The notes under the pieces: generated by a model
Told to the model about the DNA's origin: nothing
The model's input: only the letters and a program-made list of their open reading frames with translations
Database searches by the model: none
Made by a program: the position numbers and the translations under genes
Shown: positions 9,678-52,235 of the stretch, in pieces
Layout: the number at the start of each line of letters is the position of its first letter
How positions within the stretch are numbered: the stretch's first letter is position 1
Virus genome (UHGV): UHGV-0124967
DNA from: a virus
DNA length: 52,734 nt
Direction: 5' to 3' (one strand)

Positions 9678-9874
9678 ACGCCATCAAGCAAAAACAAAAC
9701 TTCCTTCCCTTCTCTGGATCTGCACCCCACATACCCATCACCAACGTCGTGAAGATACCATATATCGCCATTATCAGCTTTTACAGCAAGGTCGTTGATC
9801 TCATAGTCATCAAACAATGTGAAAGCGTCAGTTTTGTCCACTACACAAGTCCCGTACATATTAACCACCATCAT
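9674..9874 (-). CDS. hypothetical protein, 66 aa, translationally coupled to M
   Basis: ATG at 9874..9872 overlaps the M stop (ATGA). Confidence 0.4.
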   Translation of the reverse strand: MMVVNMYGTCVVDKTDAFTLFDDYEINDLAVKADNGDIWYLHDVGDGYVGCRSREGKEVLFLLDGV

Positions 9875-10224
9875 CTAACAACTTGCTCAAACGTTGCGTT
9901 AAGCGTGTATACATGACCGTCTTTCGTCATACTCCAGCTACGGCAAACAAAAAGCCTTTGCACGCCATCCATCGACGGCGACCAGTAAAAAGCCTCGACA
10001 GCGCCGCGCGCCATCAAGAATGCTTCAGCCTGGATCGCCACGTTTCCACCATCACCGCATCCTGCGCTACTGCCTTTAAAGACCAGGGTGTAGCTGTCAA
10101 GCAATGTGTTGATCCCTTTCGCCTGGCGCTGTTCATAACCATCACCAAGTTTGACAACGGACACATTCGGTTCCCTGGTTACGCTGTAGCTTCGTTGCGG
10201 CGTCCATTTGAACACTTCCGGCAT
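9871..10224 (-). CDS. M: minor tail protein M
   Basis: 117 aa between tape measure and L; G-rich RBS. Confidence 0.75.
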   Translation of the reverse strand: MPEVFKWTPQRSYSVTREPNVSVVKLGDGYEQRQAKGINTLLDSYTLVFKGSSAGCGDGGNVAIQAEAFLMARGAVEAFYWSPSMDGVQRLFVCRSWSMTKDGHVYTLNATFEQVVR

Positions 10225-10285
10225 AAAACCCCCCCATAAGTTACATTTTGTATATATCTTTACGCGCTTCTACGCGAAAAATAAG

Positions 10286-10302
10286 ATCATTGTCACAATG
10301 AT
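10286..10302. promoter_or_regulatory. perfect palindrome ATCATTG-TCA-CAATGAT (possible operator)
   Basis: 7-3-7 inverted repeat between divergent M and plus-strand moron genes. Confidence 0.3.
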
Positions 10303-10324
10303 TATAGCTAGTTTACAAAATGGC

Positions 10325-10353
10325 TTCACATAGTACGCAACAAGATGTATATA
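10325..10353 (+). promoter_or_regulatory. putative promoter for plus-strand moron pair
   Basis: TTCACA (10325-10330), 17 bp, TG-n-TATATA (10346-10353); about 40 bp upstream of ATG 10394. Confidence 0.4.
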
Positions 10354-10393
10354 GAAAGCAAGAAGAAAGTAGTACCAACGAAGGAGGCCCAAA

Positions 10394-10549
10394 ATGAAAC
10401 GCTATGTAGTAGTAATGCTAAATAACGCATTCGAACAAGTGGAAATAGCAATCGTTAAGGGTTTCGACGACGCATTCAAATACGGTCAATTCATGATGAA
10501 TGCGAAAGAAGATGAATACCGGGACTTCTTCCTGAAGGCACTTAACTAA
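10394..10549 (+). CDS. hypothetical small protein, 51 aa (moron)
   Basis: ATG 10394 with AAGGAGG 6 nt upstream; below ORF-track cutoff. Confidence 0.45.
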   Translation: MKRYVVVMLNNAFEQVEIAIVKGFDDAFKYGQFMMNAKEDEYRDFFLKALN

Positions 10550-10566
10550 GGATGATGGGGTGAGTT

Positions 10567-10821
10567 ATGAAACTGGTAGCGATTGACAGAAATCTGAAAG
10601 CACAGAAAAACGCACATGACCGGATCATCAAGAAAGGTAAGGAATTACTTAAAGCCTTTCTGAGAAAAGAAGTTTACCCCAAAAAGTTACGCGACGGTTA
10701 CGGATACAAAATGGATATCAATCTTGATTGGAGGCTGTTTAGCGAAGATTTGAAGGTTTGGTTAATTGTTGAGCACCATGCCTATAACAAGTTATGTGGC
10801 GTGAAAGGCACTCATAAGTGA
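10567..10821 (+). CDS. hypothetical basic protein, 84 aa (moron)
   Basis: Track ORF; same strand directly downstream of 10394 gene. Confidence 0.5.
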   Translation: MKLVAIDRNLKAQKNAHDRIIKKGKELLKAFLRKEVYPKKLRDGYGYKMDINLDWRLFSEDLKVWLIVEHHAYNKLCGVKGTHK

Positions 10822-10874
10822 GTCGAGATATTCGAAAGGGGATATATCGCGCGGAATGGTCGTTTATAAATACG

Positions 10875-10913
10875 AAAAATAACCCCGGCATTGCACCGGG
10901 GTTTAGTTTATTT
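10875..10913. terminator. bidirectional rho-independent terminator
   Basis: CCCCGG-CATTGCA-CCGGGG hairpin (10883-10901) with A-run before and T-rich after; overlaps tape-measure stop. Confidence 0.65.
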
Positions 10914-24696: not shown

Positions 24697-24843
24697 AATT
24701 CACCTCTCAATATTTATTGATGATATATACGCAAGCTACAAAACTTGCGCAGTATGTTAAAACTTCCAACCAGTCGAACAGCTCTTTCATTGTTTACCTT
24801 TATGCGAAGAAAACGATAACGACTAACAACGTGCATTAGGCGT

Positions 24844-27321: not shown

Positions 27322-27486
27322 ATTACCCCAACAAATACGGCTTTACTGCTTTCTGTATATCAGGCCATTATCAAGCAATGTTTGCATGTGTTCGCGATCC
27401 ATGCCGCTTGATTCCCAATGTGGCCCAGGTATTCGCAACCAATCGTAAACCCAGGGTATTCGCCTTTACACCGGATTTTGTAAAGT

Positions 27487-27810
27487 TTATTTGATGCGCT
27501 CAATTTCCGACCCTCCACTTTCTGCTTCAGTGATTTTGTATTCTGCCGCCAGTTCAGCGCCAAGCAATTCCACTTCCATATTAGCGATACCGTGGAACAT
27601 CAGATAGGCAAAAACTAGGCTTTTAATTCTATCCGGGTCTTCAAGATGGTCTGCATTAAAAGGCGGTTCCGATATGTGGAAGCATTTAACATGCGCATCG
27701 TCTTCAGTGGCTACACGGAAACATGTGCCAGGTTGCCCGGCGAATTCCCCCCATCTTTCTTCGTTCGGTAAAGTACCACGGAAAACTTTAACGCTGATAA
27801 ATTTAGTCAT
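27487..27810 (-). CDS. hypothetical protein, 107 aa
   Basis: Track ORF with ATG start; part of co-directional small-gene array. Confidence 0.5.
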   Translation of the reverse strand: MTKFISVKVFRGTLPNEERWGEFAGQPGTCFRVATEDDAHVKCFHISEPPFNADHLEDPDRIKSLVFAYLMFHGIANMEVELLGAELAAEYKITEAESGGSEIERIK

Positions 27811-27813
27811 TGT

Positions 27814-28095
27814 TTATTCTCCTTCGTAAAGAGTTGCCACCAGTTCGGCATCTGTTAGCGTGTTATAATCTGTATAAAACCCGCAACGCATAAGTGAAGA
27901 AAGGCCAGCCACTTTGCACCACATAGGGGTCGATTCGCTCAAATATTCATTCTCCCTTTTTTCGCTGTATTCCAGTTCATAAAACCGACTATTGTTAACA
28001 CCCTCAATTACACGGCTGTATGTGCCATCAAGCCTACTAACTCCGCGCCATAGTCTGATCACAACCATAATTTCTACTCCGTTTGATGGGGCCAT
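27814..28095 (-). CDS. hypothetical protein, 93 aa (or 84 aa from ATG 28068, which has a GGAG RBS)
   Basis: Track ORF; stop 4 nt before next gene start. Confidence 0.5.
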   Translation of the reverse strand: MAPSNGVEIMVVIRLWRGVSRLDGTYSRVIEGVNNSRFYELEYSEKRENEYLSESTPMWCKVAGLSSLMRCGFYTDYNTLTDAELVATLYEGE

Positions 28096-28107
28096 TCGGC
28101 CCCGTGT

Positions 28108-28248
28108 TTATTCTTCTTCTCCTCCTCTAAATCCTAAGCACTCCGCGTATTCGTCAATGCTTGATGCTTCTTCACCTGGTGCCAATACTTCAAAGTAGCG
28201 GGCGTATAGTTCGAAAACCCAGGCCGGATATTTAGCGTTAGCGTTCAT
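28108..28248 (-). CDS. hypothetical acidic protein, 46 aa
   Basis: ATG 28248 with AAGGGGGAA RBS; fills the gap between two track ORFs. Confidence 0.4.
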   Translation of the reverse strand: MNANAKYPAWVFELYARYFEVLAPGEEASSIDEYAECLGFRGGEEE

Positions 28249-28257
28249 GGTTCCCCC

Positions 28258-28536
28258 TTATGCCATGCGTGCAAATTCAAGTGATTTGCATTCGTAGTCT
28301 TCCTCTGCCTGTTCGATGACTGCCATCATCATTTCGTTTGCGTTGTTGAATGCGTTGCTTTGTGCGAACTTGTCGGCTCCACCTTCTTCTTCGAACTCCG
28401 CGTTGTTTGCTGCAATGTAGTGATATTCGATGTTGTTCAGGTAAGGGCTTGCAGCGTGTGCTGGGTCTTCTTTCTCCACCATCTCCCAAAATGCGTTTAA
28501 GCGAGATTCGACTTCTTTGTTAATCCAGCGTTTCAT
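28258..28536 (-). CDS. hypothetical acidic protein, 92 aa
   Basis: GGAGGG RBS; preceded by 98-bp intergenic region with inverted repeat and CRP-like site. Confidence 0.5.
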   Translation of the reverse strand: MKRWINKEVESRLNAFWEMVEKEDPAHAASPYLNNIEYHYIAANNAEFEEEGGADKFAQSNAFNNANEMMMAVIEQAEEDYECKSLEFARMA

Positions 28537-28617
28537 TTTTCTACCCTCCGCATCGTTCTCTCTTCAGCTTCTTTATAACAAAATGGCACTGCCGAAACAA
28601 TGCCATTTCGTAAACCT

Positions 28618-28633
28618 TGTGATACAGATCACA
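28618..28633. promoter_or_regulatory. CRP-consensus-like palindrome TGTGA-N6-TCACA
   Basis: TGTGATACAGATCACA; adjacent to inverted repeat AAATGGCA...TGCCATTT (28582-28608). Confidence 0.35.
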
Positions 28634-28634
28634 T

Positions 28635-28859
28635 TTACGTTTCTTCCGTAAAAGTAACCTTCATCGCCCCATCCGAACTACGGACAACATAACGACCAAT
28701 ACCGCCTAGCGGCCCTGCATACCATAAGTGACCGTAAGTGTCAGTCACGACGATAAACGGAAATTTAGGAGACAATCCCATCGGTTTTTCAGCCGTATAC
28801 TGTGCGCCTTCTTCAAAACAGCCTAATTTCGATTCGTTACACGTTAAAATCATTTTCAT
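28635..28859 (-). CDS. small protein, paralogue family member A (74 aa)
   Basis: Shares F..G.IY...D..G.LW.F-type pattern with the next three genes. Confidence 0.55.
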   Translation of the reverse strand: MKMILTCNESKLGCFEEGAQYTAEKPMGLSPKFPFIVVTDTYGHLWYAGPLGGIGRYVVRSSDGAMKVTFTEET

Positions 28860-29095
28860 ACCCCTACATACGAAAACGCAGCAAAAGCACCACCACCAGC
28901 ACGCGCATAAACAAGTGCCGTGCCATACCCCATCTTATAAAATCGCCATAACTGACCCTGGTCGTCAGTAATGGCATGAATATATTCCTGATCCTTTGCG
29001 TCAACCAATGCCGCGTCAACCTCGTAGATCTTGCCATTCTTAAAAAACGCGCTGCATCGTGAGTATGTGCACTGGTATCTATGTTTCCGATTCAT
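28856..29095 (-). CDS. small protein, paralogue family member B (79 aa)
   Basis: GTGAGGTG RBS; ATGA overlap with A. Confidence 0.55.
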   Translation of the reverse strand: MNRKHRYQCTYSRCSAFFKNGKIYEVDAALVDAKDQEYIHAITDDQGQLWRFYKMGYGTALVYARAGGGAFAAFSYVGV

Positions 29096-29105
29096 AGCAC
29101 CTCAC

Positions 29106-29363
29106 TTATTCCGGTTTACTGCCTTCGCGGGCGCAAAACTCCGCGATCTCACGGAAATCATGCACTATGCGATAAATATACAAACCAGCGGCGTTATTGA
29201 TATGGCTAACATAAGCGAAATAAACTTTATCATCATCGCCAGTTATCGCCATTGCACCATCACCGCCCGGTGCGCCGTGGAGTTGAACGCCGCAATAGAT
29301 CTTCCCTTCTTCAAAAATATTGCGGTCGCGCGTCTGTAATACCTCAAAATATAAATGTTTCAT
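29106..29363 (-). CDS. small protein, paralogue family member C (85 aa)
   Basis: ATG 29363 with AAAGGGG RBS (track ORF extends to 29399). Confidence 0.55.
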   Translation of the reverse strand: MKHLYFEVLQTRDRNIFEEGKIYCGVQLHGAPGGDGAMAITGDDDKVYFAYVSHINNAAGLYIYRIVHDFREIAEFCAREGSKPE

Positions 29364-29373
29364 TGTTGCCCCT

Positions 29374-29586
29374 TTAATAACGTTCAAAGCTGGCAGCAAA
29401 ACCTACACCGGATATTTCACCGCCTTCATAGCTCGGCCTGAATACCCATATTTCGTCATGATTATCAATCAAGGCAAGGCAATTACTCATTGTGTGTGCT
29501 TCATTGCCATAAACGATGTGAACGTCATAAATACTCCCAATCGTGAAAACACTGTCATTGCTTGAGTATGAGCATTTAACTTGCAT
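29374..29586 (-). CDS. small protein, paralogue family member D (70 aa)
   Basis: Start overlaps upstream stop by 1 nt. Confidence 0.55.
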   Translation of the reverse strand: MQVKCSYSSNDSVFTIGSIYDVHIVYGNEAHTMSNCLALIDNHDEIWVFRPSYEGGEISGVGFAASFERY

Positions 29587-29831
29587 CAGAAAACCCCTTT
29601 ATAATCGACCGTGTATTTTGCTATCAGATTCCAGTCGCAGTAATTAAGCATGTTGCGAGGCTGCCAGCCTTTCATCCCGACCGCCCGCCGCGCAGCGTGA
29701 CGGCGATAATCATCGTTATAGTCAGCTATGCACCACGGCTGGAGAACAAACATATAATTTGCTTCATTAACCAGGATAGCCACCAGCTTTCCTGTTGCCT
29801 TGTCTTTTGCCCTGAAATAATTCACTTTCAT
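29586..29831 (-). CDS. hypothetical protein, 81 aa
   Basis: Track ORF, coupled to neighbours. Confidence 0.5.
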   Translation of the reverse strand: MKVNYFRAKDKATGKLVAILVNEANYMFVLQPWCIADYNDDYRRHAARRAVGMKGWQPRNMLNYCDWNLIAKYTVDYKGVF

Positions 29832-30043
29832 TTTAACACCTCGTCGATCAACATTTCTTCTTCCAGGTTAGCCGGACGTTTACGAAATATCCCGGCAAAA
29901 ACCAGATCTTCGAGTAGGTCTTTACGCTTAAATAACCACTCTTTCATTATCACCCCGTCGTTGCTGCGATATACGACGCCGCTTTTCAGAAAATAAAAAG
30001 TGCGGCTATTGGTCTGTAGGTAGAGATCTTCGTAAACGTCCAT
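29828..30043 (-). CDS. hypothetical protein, 71 aa
   Basis: Track ORF, 4-nt overlap with downstream gene. Confidence 0.5.
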   Translation of the reverse strand: MDVYEDLYLQTNSRTFYFLKSGVVYRSNDGVIMKEWLFKRKDLLEDLVFAGIFRKRPANLEEEMLIDEVLK

Positions 30044-30047
30044 ACCG

Positions 30048-30275
30048 TTAATCCTCTACAATCTCAAGCCCGCGCCCCTTGTCCCCGACGAAATCGCCCA
30101 AGCTGAACGTATACGACCACGCCGGATTGATGTAATGGTCATCAGCACCAGCGGCAATGAGATCAGCACCATTAATCATGCAAGTAATATCATCGCTATG
30201 AACGACATTAACGACCTTACCAACAACCTGTTTCAATGACTGGTATCCGTGATCGTGCAAGAATTTAACTTTCAT
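30048..30275 (-). CDS. hypothetical protein, 75 aa (distant resemblance to the A-D family)
   Basis: Track ORF with ATG. Confidence 0.5.
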   Translation of the reverse strand: MKVKFLHDHGYQSLKQVVGKVVNVVHSDDITCMINGADLIAAGADDHYINPAWSYTFSLGDFVGDKGRGLEIVED

Positions 30276-30505
30276 TCGTCTGCCTCCCAGTGGTCTATGC
30301 TGATTAAAAAGTCCCGGATAGCGTGTCGTTCGTCGCGCGTTGGCTTGCGCTTACGGTAAATCTTAAAGTCAAACCATTCTTTTTCTTGTTCGAAATCCAG
30401 GTTGTAAGCAAGCACCTCAATATATCCACATTCGTGATACTGGTACGCCACGCCAGCACGAACAAAAAAGCGGGTTTTATCCCGCTTGTGTTCATAGATA
30501 CGCAT
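30272..30505 (-). CDS. hypothetical protein, 77 aa
   Basis: Track ORF; ATGA overlap. Confidence 0.5.
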   Translation of the reverse strand: MRIYEHKRDKTRFFVRAGVAYQYHECGYIEVLAYNLDFEQEKEWFDFKIYRKRKPTRDERHAIRDFLISIDHWEADE

Positions 30506-30515
30506 ATTTGCCCCA

Positions 30516-30746
30516 CTATGCAGTCGTGTAACTATCTACCAGCTTTTCATCCTTCATTCTGGCAAGCTGGGAGATATTCATCGTGTAGCCTTCATCAGAG
30601 AAAAGCCACTCCGCAGCCTTGCGACGAAAAGCTATATCATCATGGTTGCGCGTCCATGTAGCGATCACCACGCGCTTTCCATCAGTGGCAAACATGGTTA
30701 ATTCGTTATCAACAACGTCGATAGCCTGCCAGATTTTTAGTTCCAT
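30516..30746 (-). CDS. hypothetical protein, 76 aa
   Basis: Track ORF. Confidence 0.5.
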   Translation of the reverse strand: MELKIWQAIDVVDNELTMFATDGKRVVIATWTRNHDDIAFRRKAAEWLFSDEGYTMNISQLARMKDEKLVDSYTTA

Positions 30747-31102
30747 GATTTATCACCGTAGATCTTGAATAGTTCACACGCTTTCTGATCTTCAAATATA
30801 TTCATATGCAGGTCACGCAGACGGCGCATTGTTCGGAATCGCGGTCTAAACTCCTGGCTCCGTTTAATGTATTTGCCGCCAATTGAATAAATATGCCCGT
30901 ATGAATACCATCTATTCCCTACCCATATTTCATATTCTTTGCCTTCGTAATTGAATTTTATCGTTAGCTCGTCCACTTCAACTATTGACCATTTATCAAT
31001 GATGTCATTAAGCATTTCGTCCCATTCTTTCAGGAATGGATGCTGATAAAAACCGAAAAGCGTATTTGCAGCGTGGCAAAGGTAATCAATGATTATTTGC
31101 AT
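30737..31102 (-). CDS. hypothetical protein, 121 aa
   Basis: Track ORF; Trp/Tyr-rich. Confidence 0.55.
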   Translation of the reverse strand: MQIIIDYLCHAANTLFGFYQHPFLKEWDEMLNDIIDKWSIVEVDELTIKFNYEGKEYEIWVGNRWYSYGHIYSIGGKYIKRSQEFRPRFRTMRRLRDLHMNIFEDQKACELFKIYGDKSWN

Positions 31103-31322
31103 ATTTCCACCTTCTCAATATGTAGTAAATGTTATCGTAAGCTATATTATCCGCATCTTCCTGTGTTATATGTCTGGCATCAAAAAAGAAATCAGCGTCG
31201 TGCCATACATGAAAAAGAAGTCGCGCGAATTATCTGCGGCGGCGCTTACTGCGTGATAGTTCGTTAAATTCTATTAACGCTTTATCATATGCTCTTATCA
31301 TGCGCTTACGGTTACTTTTCAT
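31085..31322 (-). pseudogene. tandem paralogue of 31327..31527 interrupted by an in-frame TAA
   Basis: ATG 31322 gives MKSNRKRMIRAYDKALIEFNELSRSKRRRR, then TAA (31232..31230), then same frame continues FARLLFHVWHDAD...DNIYYI; this matches the upstream gene product on both sides of the stop. Confidence 0.45.
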
Positions 31323-31326
31323 ATTG

Positions 31327-31527
31327 TCACCACATCATATAGTAAACGTTATCATCTGCTAATTCGTCTGCGTCTCTTTGGCAGTCGATTGTCGCATCAT
31401 CTTCGTGCCATTCTTTAGCAAATAAACGCGCCCATTTACGACGCTCACGTTTATTGTGCCGCAGGTCACTAAAAACCATTAAAGCCTTGTCGTAAGCTCT
31501 TACCAGGCGTTTCATTCTACTTTTCAT
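31327..31527 (-). CDS. hypothetical basic protein, 66 aa (intact copy of duplicated gene)
   Basis: MKSRMKRLVRAYDKALMVF...DNVYYMMW. Confidence 0.5.
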   Translation of the reverse strand: MKSRMKRLVRAYDKALMVFSDLRHNKRERRKWARLFAKEWHEDDATIDCQRDADELADDNVYYMMW

Positions 31528-31733
31528 TTTTCACCCTTCCTTAATTCCTTAATTTCAATATTGCGTAACCGGACGTCGCACGGCGTTTCAGATTTACCAG
31601 TAAGCGCCAGCGTCAGGTTTTCAGGTGTCGTGTAAAGAATTATCTCTTTACCAGTGCTAAATTTAATTTCTATGCGGATCTCGTTTTCATCACCGCACAA
31701 TACGCGGCTAATTGACAGGCCAGCTTTTTTCAT
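31524..31733 (-). CDS. hypothetical protein, 69 aa
   Basis: Track ORF; ATGA overlap. Confidence 0.5.
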   Translation of the reverse strand: MKKAGLSISRVLCGDENEIRIEIKFSTGKEIILYTTPENLTLALTGKSETPCDVRLRNIEIKELRKGEK

Positions 31734-31746
31734 TGCTCAACAAACC

Positions 31747-32058
31747 TTAAAATCTGTATTGCCAGTAAATATCACACTTTATTGCGAATACCTTCACCGG
31801 ATCAGGGCCGAATAGTGGATGTTGAATCAACTTGATTTCGTACCCCATGTAAGGCAATACGATAATCCGGTCTTTCTCATCATCCGATGGATAACCCCAT
31901 TTAATGATTAATCTTGTGTACTCCCGCCCCTCCAGGCGTTTACGCCAGTATTCATTGTAAAGCCGGTATTCTTCCACCTTCTTTCCCGCCCGGATGGCGT
32001 GGAAGTATTCACCTTTTAAATTCAAATGTAAGTGTTTATTTGCCATCGCTATGATCAT
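31747..32058 (-). CDS. putative ASCH-domain protein (start 32058 or 32046)
   Basis: HAIRAGKKVEEYRL fits the ASCH GxKxxExR motif. Confidence 0.5.
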   Translation of the reverse strand: MIIAMANKHLHLNLKGEYFHAIRAGKKVEEYRLYNEYWRKRLEGREYTRLIIKWGYPSDDEKDRIIVLPYMGYEIKLIQHPLFGPDPVKVFAIKCDIYWQYRF

Positions 32059-32305
32059 GTAAACAGTCGTTATAGCCTTCGATGTATCCGGTTAATCCTG
32101 TGTTACTTACTGACCAATCAGCCGAACGGCGCTTGATGGCCTTGTCCATAGTCATCTCGTCACCTGGCCCGCCTGGCTCGATGTATTTTCTTAAATCCCT
32201 TACTATCCACGCCCTTAATTGTTGCGTATCACTGCACACACGCGCCGTTAATGTCAGATTATTAACCAGCTTTGCGAATAGATGTTCTTTTAATTTAGGC
32301 TTCAT
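32036..32305 (-). CDS. hypothetical protein, 89 aa
   Basis: GAGGTGA RBS. Confidence 0.5.
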   Translation of the reverse strand: MKPKLKEHLFAKLVNNLTLTARVCSDTQQLRAWIVRDLRKYIEPGGPGDEMTMDKAIKRRSADWSVSNTGLTGYIEGYNDCLHDHSDGK

Positions 32306-32501
32306 CCTTCACCTCGCGACGATAGATTTCTACTGGCTTAACCGGAATAGCGTTAAAATCACCTTCATCCAGTGCGGCAATAAACGTTAGCGCCAACCGT
32401 GCTTCAACACCGCTTAAATACTTGCACCATGCCTCACCGTTATAATCTTTAAAAAGAATAATCACTTTTTCATGTTTATCTCTTGTTGTTTCATTATTCA
32501 C
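32295..32501 (-). CDS. hypothetical protein, 68 aa, non-ATG (GTG) start
   Basis: No in-frame ATG; begins at GTG overlapping the Q stop. Confidence 0.4.
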   Translation of the reverse strand: MNNETTRDKHEKVIILFKDYNGEAWCKYLSGVEARLALTFIAALDEGDFNAIPVKPVEIYRREVKDEA

Positions 32502-34754: not shown

Positions 34755-35516
34755 TCAGTCCGGTAAAACGCGGTTGAGCGTAGTACGATTGATGGCCCGG
34801 TCGTTAGCCAGGAATACAGCACGGGCAAAGCCACGCGGCGTTAGTGAGCGGATCATCTTAGTGCGTTTCGACTTTCCTCCTAACTTAGCGTGCTGCTTAC
34901 TGTCTTCCCATTCATCAGGCATTGGCACAGGCAGGAATAGCGGCTGATTAAATCCATTCCCGCACCAGATACAAGTTTTCTTCGTGTATGCGTCGCGGTC
35001 GGCGATGTATTCCGGGAAGGCAGGATGTTTGTCATCTTCAGGCAGGTAGCCACCGTAAGCGCACGGGTTGAAGATAAAATCCGGCTTACGCCATAACGTT
35101 GACAGCGCACCTACCGGATTTTCCACCATCCACGGGACGTGGTACATATCAGCAAGCGTTTCTACCAGTTTTGCGTTGTATGCCGCCTTCTGCTGGAAGT
35201 AAGGTTCTTTTTTCCGCTTATCAGCAAACCAGCGAGCGCCGGACACCGCAAGATCGTCGCACGGAGGAAAGCCCAGGATAATGTCAGGATCTGGATAAAC
35301 AGACAATTCAGGGGAGAACATTACCAGGAAATGGCTGTCAATCCATACGTTGATATACTCAATGTTCGGATGAATGATTTTTGACGCCTTCATAATCGCC
35401 GTGATTAGCGCCATCATAGTTGAAGCAATAGCATTTATAACCAGCGTCGGCCCAATCTTTAACGGCGTATCCGCTGCCGTCGTACAGCGACCACACCACC
35501 CAATTTCTAAGTCCAC
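34755..35516 (-). CDS. DNA cytosine-5 methyltransferase-like protein (short, atypical N-terminus)
   Basis: PDPDIILGFPPCDDLAVSG resembles motif IV and WMVENPVG motif VI; no clean motif I, so may be truncated or frameshifted. Confidence 0.5.
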   Translation of the reverse strand: MDLEIGWCGRCTTAADTPLKIGPTLVINAIASTMMALITAIMKASKIIHPNIEYINVWIDSHFLVMFSPELSVYPDPDIILGFPPCDDLAVSGARWFADKRKKEPYFQQKAAYNAKLVETLADMYHVPWMVENPVGALSTLWRKPDFIFNPCAYGGYLPEDDKHPAFPEYIADRDAYTKKTCIWCGNGFNQPLFLPVPMPDEWEDSKQHAKLGGKSKRTKMIRSLTPRGFARAVFLANDRAINRTTLNRVLPD

Positions 35517-36019
35517 TCTTTCCTACCCTCGAACGTAAAGTAGCGGCGCATGATGATAGTGATCACCGTTACCGCCGCCATTTTTGAGATGAATTGCATA
35601 GCTGATATTTCCGGCATGAATGCCATAAACGATAGCGTTGGGAAAATTAACGCATCGCCAATGGCGGACGCTATATTTGCAGGCCAGCGTTTAGAATCGA
35701 AATCACCAGGTAAAACCCGGTAAACGCCGCCAGAAATAAGCGCACCGGAAACAACCGCGACGAATGACGCGATCGCCACCATTCCGGCGTCGTAATTTAT
35801 CAGCACCGTGATTGCGCCAGCGGCGGCGCATGTTGTAGCCGACCATTTAAGGCCGCCGTCATATAACAGAAAATCACGAATCATCATATTGACACACACT
35901 GCGGCTACCGTGGTGATCGGAATTACCCACGGGCCACAGTGGTTAACAATAAGATTGATGATCACGAAAACGGCGACATAAACGCAGGCTAATAACCTGT
36001 CAATTGTCACCCTTTTCAT
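35507..36019 (-). CDS. multi-pass inner membrane protein, 170 aa
   Basis: ATG 36019 with AAGAGGT RBS (track ORF starts at TTG 36061); several hydrophobic helices. Confidence 0.5.
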   Translation of the reverse strand: MKRVTIDRLLACVYVAVFVIINLIVNHCGPWVIPITTVAAVCVNMMIRDFLLYDGGLKWSATTCAAAGAITVLINYDAGMVAIASFVAVVSGALISGGVYRVLPGDFDSKRWPANIASAIGDALIFPTLSFMAFMPEISAMQFISKMAAVTVITIIMRRYFTFEGRKEWT

Positions 36020-37041: not shown

Positions 37042-37293
37042 TTAGAAATAATCCTGATCAGTTCCCCATCGGTTGTTTAAATACCCCACCAGCCAGACAA
37101 AACGCTCGATACTGATTAGCGGGGCGACCTTGCGATAATGCTTGTCTAATATCAGCCGCGTGGCTTTATCGCTGTAGCCGTTCTTTTCCACCTCCGCTTT
37201 GCAGGCCGAAAGCGCCGCGCGGGCGGCAGTTTTTACGGCGTTAAATTGCGGCTCTGACATATTGAATAAAGCCATAGGATCACCATGTATCAT
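37042..37293 (-). CDS. hypothetical protein, 83 aa
   Basis: Track ORF with ATG. Confidence 0.5.
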   Translation of the reverse strand: MIHGDPMALFNMSEPQFNAVKTAARAALSACKAEVEKNGYSDKATRLILDKHYRKVAPLISIERFVWLVGYLNNRWGTDQDYF

Positions 37294-37477
37294 CCCAATC
37301 CGGCGCGGCAGTCAAGCAAAAACCAATGAATGCGCTCACAGCCAATAAAGCGCGGGCTGCAAAAAGAATATTCCCAATGTCGTTAAATTCAGGCAGCGAC
37401 CACGTAATAAACATACCCCCCAGCATAATAACACCGATAACAGTCAGGGCCGCCAGGAAAACAAAAAGCGTAGCCAA
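37280..37477 (-). CDS. putative membrane protein; start uncertain (TTG 37477 or ATG 37426)
   Basis: Hydrophobic throughout. Confidence 0.35.
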   Translation of the reverse strand: MATLFVFLAALTVIGVIMLGGMFITWSLPEFNDIGNILFAARALLAVSAFIGFCLTAAPDWDDTW

Positions 37478-37518
37478 AAGCCACGCCCCCCAACCAGTTA
37501 AAAAAGCTCTTAAGCATT

Positions 37519-37906: not shown

Positions 37907-38322
37907 GCCTCACCTCATATGGTATTCAATAAACCACCTAATAAACAGGCATAAGGCAATAAAACACCAGCAACAGCACATATAAAACAATGTGTCGTCC
38001 ATAATTAAGCCTCAATAACACCATAATCAAACGTGCCTAAATACTGTTCGATACTTACAACCTCAATACCATCAATGCACCGTTTCTACACAGACACCCT
38101 GCTTTCATTTTCCCGGAAGTGCATATTAGAAAGCACTTCATCGGCTGGATAGCCTTTCCCAGCGACGTAGGCATCGAGACCTACTCCACCCTCAACACAA
38201 TAAAGCATTAATTCGCTGGCCATCTTGTTTTCCTCCGCGCCGTAAACCTTTTGATTTCAGTTCACAAAACGGATTCGCGATCACAACACAAAATGTATTT
38301 TTATGTGATCGCCATCACTATG

Positions 38323-51972: not shown

Positions 51973-52235
51973 TTTGGTCACGTTTTGGTACACAGTTTTT
52001 GTTGTACGGATATTAACAGTATTGTACGGAATTAGAAACGTGATGCCGGGTTTTGGTTACAACTTTATGATTTTTAAGTGATTTTATTGACGTGATTGAA
52101 CGGAGTTAAACGCCTTTAAACATAGTGCGCTGGTCCTGTCTGGAATGATTAGTGTAACGAATAATCATTTATAAAACATAATGTTATGTTGTTTTTGATT
52201 TTAGTTTTTGATATTTGGTCACTATTTGGTACACA
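51973..52235. repeat. two copies of a ~22-bp direct repeat flanking an AT-rich region; candidate integrase arm sites / att region
   Basis: TTTGGTCACGTTTTGGTACACA (51975-51996) and TTTGGTCACTATTTGGTACACA (52214-52235); each is itself a tandem of TTTGGT(C/A)AC. Confidence 0.35.

Follow-up and report, generated by a model that had tools for sequence, protein, structure and literature searches.

A probable recent pseudogene, marked by a private ochre codon, in a tandem pair of phrog_8758 genes of a temperate coliphage

Introduction

Does an interval of phage DNA that looks intergenic hold a gene, and if so, is the stop codon in the middle of that gene a lesion, a recoding signal, or a mistake of the assembly? 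These questions are raised by a short stretch on the minus strand of the virus genome UHGV-0124967, the whole 52,734 nucleotides of which were analyzed and are called the window here. Between an intact gene for a 66-aa protein (copy 1) and a downstream gene for a 121-aa protein lies an interval in which the original prediction, made from the letters alone, had recognized a second copy of the 66-aa gene (copy 2), carrying an in-frame TAA that might mark either a fresh pseudogene or a candidate for stop-codon readthrough.

Results

Phage genome and relatives

The window is a complete circular genome of 52,734 bp from a human gut metagenome, and it represents the excised attP form of a temperate E. 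coli phage of the mEpimmI group (mEp021-like). The region matches the coliphages MagusPhagus, mEp013, mEp044, mEp554, and mEp010 with 80-88% nucleotide identity, and some 30 E. coli prophages match it too. In lysogens, dgcM adjoins the integrase end of the prophage, at a junction that corresponds to window position 52144; the other prophage end is the final 585 bases of the window, which run directly into position 1 (M1/5 coordinates 2683375/2683376). The integrase end and this other end are fused in the window at about 52144/52145, and the circle is permuted such that the window's end (52734) joins its start (1) inside a tail/head fibre gene.

Two human-gut metagenome contigs in ENA carry the same genome, namely, ERZ917507 k127_23615 (52,811 nt) and ERZ28625000 QINJ12-1 scaffold_102 (52,748 nt), of which the latter is permuted differently from the window. 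Over every part that was compared, both agree with the window at 99.995-100% identity, and their lengths fit a 52,734-bp circle plus an assembler overlap.

The mEpimmI group has been described as Nus-dependent non-lambdoid coliphages by Negrete-Mendez et al. 2025 (PMC11893012), whose account makes no mention of paralogs, duplications, or pseudogenes in this region. Elsewhere in the genome, the nearest relatives L015, L020, and L021 have about 485 bp more than the window at ~24837-24839 (between 24696 and 25015), in an intergenic position upstream of the small terminase gene; this extra DNA holds neither a tRNA nor a convincing ORF. In the structural half (window ~1-24839), the annotation of relatives includes an anti-CBASS Acb1-family protein, and the gene table of the metagenome contig shows, within the tail module (window 9800-10900), two genes on the opposite strand, one ParE-like and one with a VasI domain.

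Gene order at the locus

The tandem pair belongs to a string of about 25 small ORFs (45-121 aa) on the minus strand at window ~27400-32500, between the Q-like antiterminator and the holin. Nearly all of these ORFs match no Pfam family, and they are tightly packed, with stops and starts that overlap or lie 4 nt apart. At the position after Q, lambdoid phages usually go straight to the lysis genes. A promoter and terminator scan returned counts at shuffled expectation. Table 1 gives the features around the two copies, and the order of ASCH-like gene, 69-aa gene, copy 1, copy 2, and 121-aa gene is conserved.

Table 1. Features of the tandem pair and its neighbors, in window positions
Feature	Position	Strand	Match or remark
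ASCH-like gene	31747..32058	minus-strand string	99-aa 'RNA-binding protein' product
Upstream 69-aa gene	31524..31733	minus	phrog_1222
Copy 1, intact 66-aa gene (MKSRMKRLVRAYDKAL...DNVYYMMW)	31327..31527	minus	phrog_8758, E=2.3e-24
Copy 2, ancestral frame of 78 codons plus TGA, disrupted in the window	31086..31322	minus	phrog_8758, E=1.2e-24
Residual 30-codon ORF of copy 2 (MKSNRKRMIRAYDKALIEFNELSRSKRRRR)	31230..31322	minus	from the ORF list
Premature ochre TAA, codon 31 of copy 2	31230..31232	minus	CAA (Gln) in relatives
AAGGTGG, Shine-Dalgarno-like motif for the 121-aa gene	31107..31113	minus	upstream sequence CTACATATTGAGAAGGTGGAAAT, then ATG
Downstream 121-aa gene	30737..31102	minus	phrog_16975

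Copy 1 encodes a protein that is found in identical form on 380 contigs; in E. coli M1/5 and FAH, its annotation is that of a hypothetical protein (WP_001703266.1). The TGA of copy 1 precedes the ATG of copy 2 by 4 nt. At its other end, the ancestral frame of copy 2 overlaps the 121-aa gene by 17 nt, and the ATG of the latter, at 31102, sits within these last 17 nt of the frame. The 121-aa protein is listed in identical form in about 214 blocks of the sequence collection. Its AAGGTGG motif, a putative ribosome-binding site, falls in the rearranged 3' end that distinguishes copy 2 and its closest kin (the F-type alleles described below); canonical alleles have TGTGGTGA there.

Homology of the two copies

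Direct translation bears out the reading frame that had been proposed for the interval. ATG 31322..31320 on the minus strand opens copy 2, which reads MKSNRKRMIRAYDKALIEFNELSRSKRRRR and then meets TAA 31232..31230, and past this codon the same frame stays open as FARLLFHVWHDADFFFDARHITQEDADNIAYDNIYYILRRWKYANNH for 47 further codons, up to TGA 31088..31086. Thus, of the limits originally drawn at 31085 and 31322, the start at 31322 holds and the end does not, as the feature stops at 31086 with the last base of its TGA.

The apparently intergenic interval is a homologous copy of the upstream 66-aa gene, as evidenced by a BLASTP identity of 49% over 69 columns (E=2e-13). A nucleotide alignment of copy 1 with copy 2 gave 62% identity (125/201), and at such an E value, the homology is not spurious. 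In the alignment, Lys31 and Trp32 of copy 1 face, respectively, the TAA and the TTC (Phe) codon that follows it, as had been noted. Moreover, both copies match phrog_8758 at E values of about 1e-24 and over the same profile positions, 71-151, when copy 2 is searched with its stop replaced.

The term tandem duplicate is apt with regard to position and homology, and a recent duplication is not supported. Indeed, recent tandem duplication is ruled out by the 62% nucleotide identity and by a saturated synonymous distance between the copies, for which dN is 0.37. Copy 2 is nearer to the single-copy orthologs of other phages than to copy 1. Judged from these comparisons, the two copies are old paralogs in tandem that were brought or kept together.

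The phrog_8758 family

Members of the family share the N-terminus MKSNRKR.VRAYDKAL and a C-terminal DNVYY motif, and an alignment of 27 sequences has 21 invariant columns. Copy 2 belongs to a sub-family termed F-type, which is recognized by RRRRQFAR and by the C-terminus YYILRRWKYANNH; that is, F-type members have QF in place of KW at residues 31-32, and their C-terminus is extended.

The genomic slot of the family is constant. In MagusPhagus, mEp013, mEp044, M1/5, CB7286, FAH, MS 21-1, and Ecol_244, it lies between the ASCH-like and 69-aa genes on one side and the 121-aa phrog_16975 gene on the other. What fills the slot varies, however. The single-copy phages MagusPhagus, mEp013, and mEp044 and the prophage CB7286 have an intact 70-71-aa gene at the position of copy 2, and MS 21-1 has the 66-aa type only. 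E. coli FAH carries an intact tandem pair of 66 aa plus 68 aa, and Ecol_244 carries one of 68 aa plus 73 aa, both of which are annotated by PGAP. Given that intact pairs and single copies vary among relatives, the phrog_8758 locus is a small variable cassette, filled by one copy or by several different tandem combinations, and tandem pairs are recurrent and normal in it. All alleles are nearly identical in their first ~30 and last ~30 nucleotides, and the junction TGAYAATATG is common; these shared ends and this junction would make allele exchange and unequal recombination easy.

PHROG attaches no function to phrog_8758, and Pfam assigned neither copy to a family, giving only a sub-threshold match to UL17 (E=0.05). 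An AlphaFold2 model of copy 1, built from the 27-sequence alignment, has a pLDDT of 90 and helices at residues 2-23, 26-40, and 50-65, which makes the predicted fold of the family that of a three-helix protein. Foldseek searches with this model returned 0 matches in the PDB and nothing below E=0.6 in BFVD. The phrog_8758 proteins combine a strongly basic N-terminal half (KRxRRKWAR) with an acidic C-terminal half; that they bind nucleic acid or a polymerase is a guess only. One database label deserves caution. The 90%-identity cluster that contains the 66-aa copy-1 protein is represented by a 99-aa 'RNA-binding protein,' which we rejected as a copy-1 homolog, being the product of the neighboring ASCH-like gene; its presence in the cluster is probably a clustering artefact from a fused or mis-called sequence.

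Distribution of the stop codon

Comparison with related prophages and contigs, which the original prediction had proposed, gave a uniform answer: in 18 of 18 related contigs with the allele, codon 31 is CAA, not TAA. These contigs comprise E. coli M1/5, three from IMG/VR, nine genome or metagenome contigs found via the identical downstream protein, and five JGI metagenome contigs. As the minus-strand base at 31232 is C in every relative and T in the window, the stop is a private C-to-T transition that turned CAA (Gln31) into TAA. E. coli M1/5 is 99.4% identical locally and has CAA at the codon within an open 78-aa frame. The nearest relatives (L010-L012, L015, and L021) are 99.8-99.9% identical locally, and position 31232 is among the very few differences. 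Other than in the window, the TAA occurs only in the ERZ917507 contig, which is of the same phage, and a scan of a one-genome-per-species contig collection for the 30-nt pattern around codon 31 gave no match.

Outside this phage, the allele is intact and widespread. The copy-2 ORF is uninterrupted in L004, L008-L022, L027, and L029-L031, and the intact 78-aa protein is recorded on more than 200 contigs (152, 57, and several more; clusters P0001/P0004). A sister allele of 73 aa is found on about 90 contigs. By contrast with these records, an exact look-up of the 30-aa truncated product retrieved no gene on record.

The 30-codon residual ORF is probably still translated, by way of an assumed coupling with copy 1, and ribosomes that start at ATG 31322 would be released by an efficient TAA-T signal once 30 codons have been read. 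In-frame ATG, GTG, or TTG codons occur in copy 2 only at codons 1, 8, and 69 of 78, and because there is no restart between the stop and codon 69, the C-terminal 47 residues would not be made. On the copy-1 model, the 30-residue product would reach through helix 1 and a few residues into helix 2 and could not form the three-helix fold. The 121-aa downstream gene, with its own putative AAGGTGG ribosome-binding site, would be expected to be expressed regardless.

Other private lesions in the same genome

The stop in copy 2 is not the only change of its kind. When the window was compared with eight 20-kb relatives over ~19 kb, its private changes came to five 1-bp indels and about 11 substitutions, of which 2 are nonsense, 8 missense, and 1 synonymous. 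Besides the TAA, at least four further private gene-disrupting lesions lie within 7 kb of the same genome, and about 30 neighboring genes are protein-identical to those of relatives. All told, the disruptive changes in small early and post-Q accessory genes of these 7 kb number two nonsense codons and three or four frameshifts.

Individually, the other lesions, all read on the minus strand, are as follows. At 38087, in the gene at 38005..38223, TGG (present in 8/8 relatives) has become TAG at codon 46 of a 72-aa gene. At 37491, a private G in a G-run (G6 versus G5) shifts the frame of the 78-aa gene at 37280..37517; a separate G-run indel is found in L015, 70 nt from this one, which indicates that this gene has been hit repeatedly. 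At 35518, a private loss of T destroys the ATGA stop/start overlap between genes for proteins of 167 aa (35517..36019) and 254 aa (34755..35519), and 136 nt downstream, at 35382, a private A in an A-run restores the frame. What results is a GTG-started ORF of 253 aa, the first ~44 residues of which are out of frame relative to relatives; to judge from the reading frames, the pair looks like a compensated frameshift. Finally, at 32465-32470, in the gene at 32295..32494, which directly follows the Q-like antiterminator, the window has A5 in place of the A6 of all relatives (ATGAAAAAAGTG), a frameshift at codon 10 of a 66-aa gene (MKQQEINMKK, then a stop). An ORF of 68 aa that starts at GTG 32501 leads back into the old frame and could still supply most of the protein; the 68-aa variant is found on only 5 contigs, apparently all of the same phage. 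Overall, the lesions look like recent mutations in dispensable accessory genes that selection has not yet filtered.

Discussion

We consider copy 2 to be, very probably, an accessory gene that was recently inactivated by a private ochre mutation, and thus an ordinary fresh pseudogene, which was one of the two readings put forward at the outset. The sequence comparisons that favor this reading are the CAA codon of 18/18 relatives, their near identity to the window around the codon, and the intact product on so many contigs. Copy 2 would then have lost its function, and the phage would be able to dispense with it. Several other accounts of the same TAA have to be weighed against this one.

The other original reading, that of a stop-codon readthrough candidate, finds little in its favor. 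It would require the TAA to be decoded at a useful rate, by programmed readthrough or suppression, yielding both a 30-aa and a 78-aa product, and we regard it as very improbable. The frame after the stop does remain open and homologous, as this account would have it, and near-cognate decoding of UAA, which inserts Gln, would recreate the ancestral protein. However, the open frame is explained by a very recent mutation. A stop at or near codon 31 is found in 0/18 close relatives and in none of the family clusters, of which there are about 35; conservation would be expected of a programmed signal, and a TAA unique to one genome is therefore not programmed. The sequence across the stop (CGCCGCAGA-TAA-TTCGCG) places it in the context AGA-TAA-T, within CGCAGA-TAA-TTCGCG, and UAA-U is reportedly the most efficiently terminated tetranucleotide in E. 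coli (Poole, Brown & Tate 1995). TAA is also the main genuine stop locally, ending 22 of 37 neighboring genes. ARAGORN found no tRNA gene in the 52.7-kb genome, and a search of 30500-32000 with Rfam for stimulatory elements returned only a chance-level match to sroH (E=0.08). Reassignment of the code, or a phage that carries a suppressor, was rejected as well: besides the lack of a tRNA, the in-frame stops seen are just two, one TAA in place of Gln and one TAG in place of Trp, and since they replace different residues, no single reassignment fits.

If the TAA is a plain stop, it might still be an error or a late event. According to the first of these accounts, position 31232 is really C, copy 2 still encodes its 78 aa without interruption, and nothing biological needs explaining. 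Only one base is changed, and only in this genome, which also has private 1-bp indels (four or five, of which four lie in homopolymer runs), a pattern that some sequencing chemistries also give; moreover, contigs of exactly this phage may all derive from one sample, and the allele may come from one biological source only. Yet site 31232 lies outside any homopolymer, and the -1/+1 indel pair at 35518/35382 restores the reading frame, which resembles biology rather than noise. Separately assembled, ERZ917507 k127_23615 has the same TAA and the same A5 run and is 100% identical over 6.2 kb, with 1 mismatch elsewhere in 21 kb. ERZ28625000, a second assembly, is 100% identical over the 27.6 kb compared, all of it outside the copy-2 region, and closes to the same 52,734-bp circle. 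The cohort data are presumably Illumina short reads, in which consensus substitution and indel errors are rare at good coverage. Because the independent assembly ERZ917507 has the same TAA, a real mutation is the likelier of the two, judged from assembled contigs, and we consider an error quite unlikely. It is also unlikely, in our judgment, that the F-type copy 2 was an older relic, redundant beside copy 1, and that the TAA is a second lesion on an existing pseudogene. F-type alleles have Phe in place of a Trp32 that is conserved in 24 of 27 aligned family members; they lack the canonical YYMMW-TGA end and read 17 nt into the next gene; and the 78-aa ORF goes uncalled by PGAP in M1/5 and in the gene tables of loci L011-L022. 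The metagenome contig L028 (OHCS01021251.1, 1,069 nt) even has a lesion of another kind in copy 2, a deletion of 31 nt, but this short contig is of low quality and has further unique indels, including a 1-bp deletion in the 121-aa gene. Against early decay, roughly 300 contigs carry an open ORF, in at least 8 distinct sequence variants of 73-78 aa; the sister allele of 73 aa is annotated by PGAP in Ecol_244, and the 78-aa protein itself appears in several NCBI records. Furthermore, dN/dS values calculated by the method of Nei and Gojobori (NG86) are 0.2-0.5 rather than ~1: 0.49 for the 78-aa allele versus its 73-aa sister (7 synonymous and 16 non-synonymous differences) and 0.22-0.29 for the 78-aa allele versus canonical 70-71-aa orthologs, compared with 0.11-0.35 for other family pairs as background. 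These values, from small counts, argue for mild purifying selection on the 78-aa allele before the TAA arose.

A last account accepts the mutation as real and recent and gives it a cause. The TAA would be part of a private burst of knock-outs in an excised, circular, and apparently replicating gut phage genome, a burst to which the 8 missense substitutions against 1 synonymous would also belong, owed either to a mutator (mismatch-repair-deficient) host or to selection for shedding accessory genes, and the truncated, arginine-rich peptide of 30 residues might keep some activity. We hold this elaboration to be improbable.

For the pseudogene reading, the practical upshot is one of annotation, beyond which the feature matters little. 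Positions 31086-31322 should be annotated as a nonsense-disrupted phrog_8758 paralog of the upstream gene and as neither intergenic DNA nor recoding. Those who use this metagenome-derived genome as a reference should know that it holds several private disruptive mutations. A modest side value is that the intact 78-aa allele has been left unannotated in at least one RefSeq genome, that of E. coli M1/5, where the ORF occupies L004 779-1015 (NZ_CP053296.1 ~2716542-2716778), in the gap between HLK60_RS12860 and HLK60_RS12855.

Several known systems help to place the locus. With the mEpimmI group, the window shares the gene order of mEp013, mEp044, mEp554, and mEp010, including a Q-like antiterminator followed by many small ORFs, as well as integration next to dgcM in lysogens; it differs in being a metagenome-derived circular genome and none of the described isolates. 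The closest known counterparts of the two copies are mEp013_51 (WWQ70332.1), mEp044_51, and MagusPhagus CDS0086, which agree with them in phrog_8758 profile, genome position, and N- and C-terminal motifs. These are single copies, however, whereas the window has two in tandem, of which copy 2 is from a divergent sub-group and bears a premature TAA. Known readthrough in phages uses UGA, as in Q-beta A1. Like Q-beta A1, copy 2 has an in-frame stop with an open, homologous frame 3' of it, but its stop is not conserved and is UAA-U rather than a leaky UGA. A better parallel is offered by the classical ochre alleles of phages, nonsense alleles that can be suppressed only by an ochre suppressor tRNA. 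In them, as would be the case in copy 2, a single transition turns a Gln codon (CAA) into UAA and truncates a dispensable phage protein; the allele in the window differs in that it arose naturally, in a gut phage population and along with other private lesions, and not as a conditional-lethal mutant of the laboratory.
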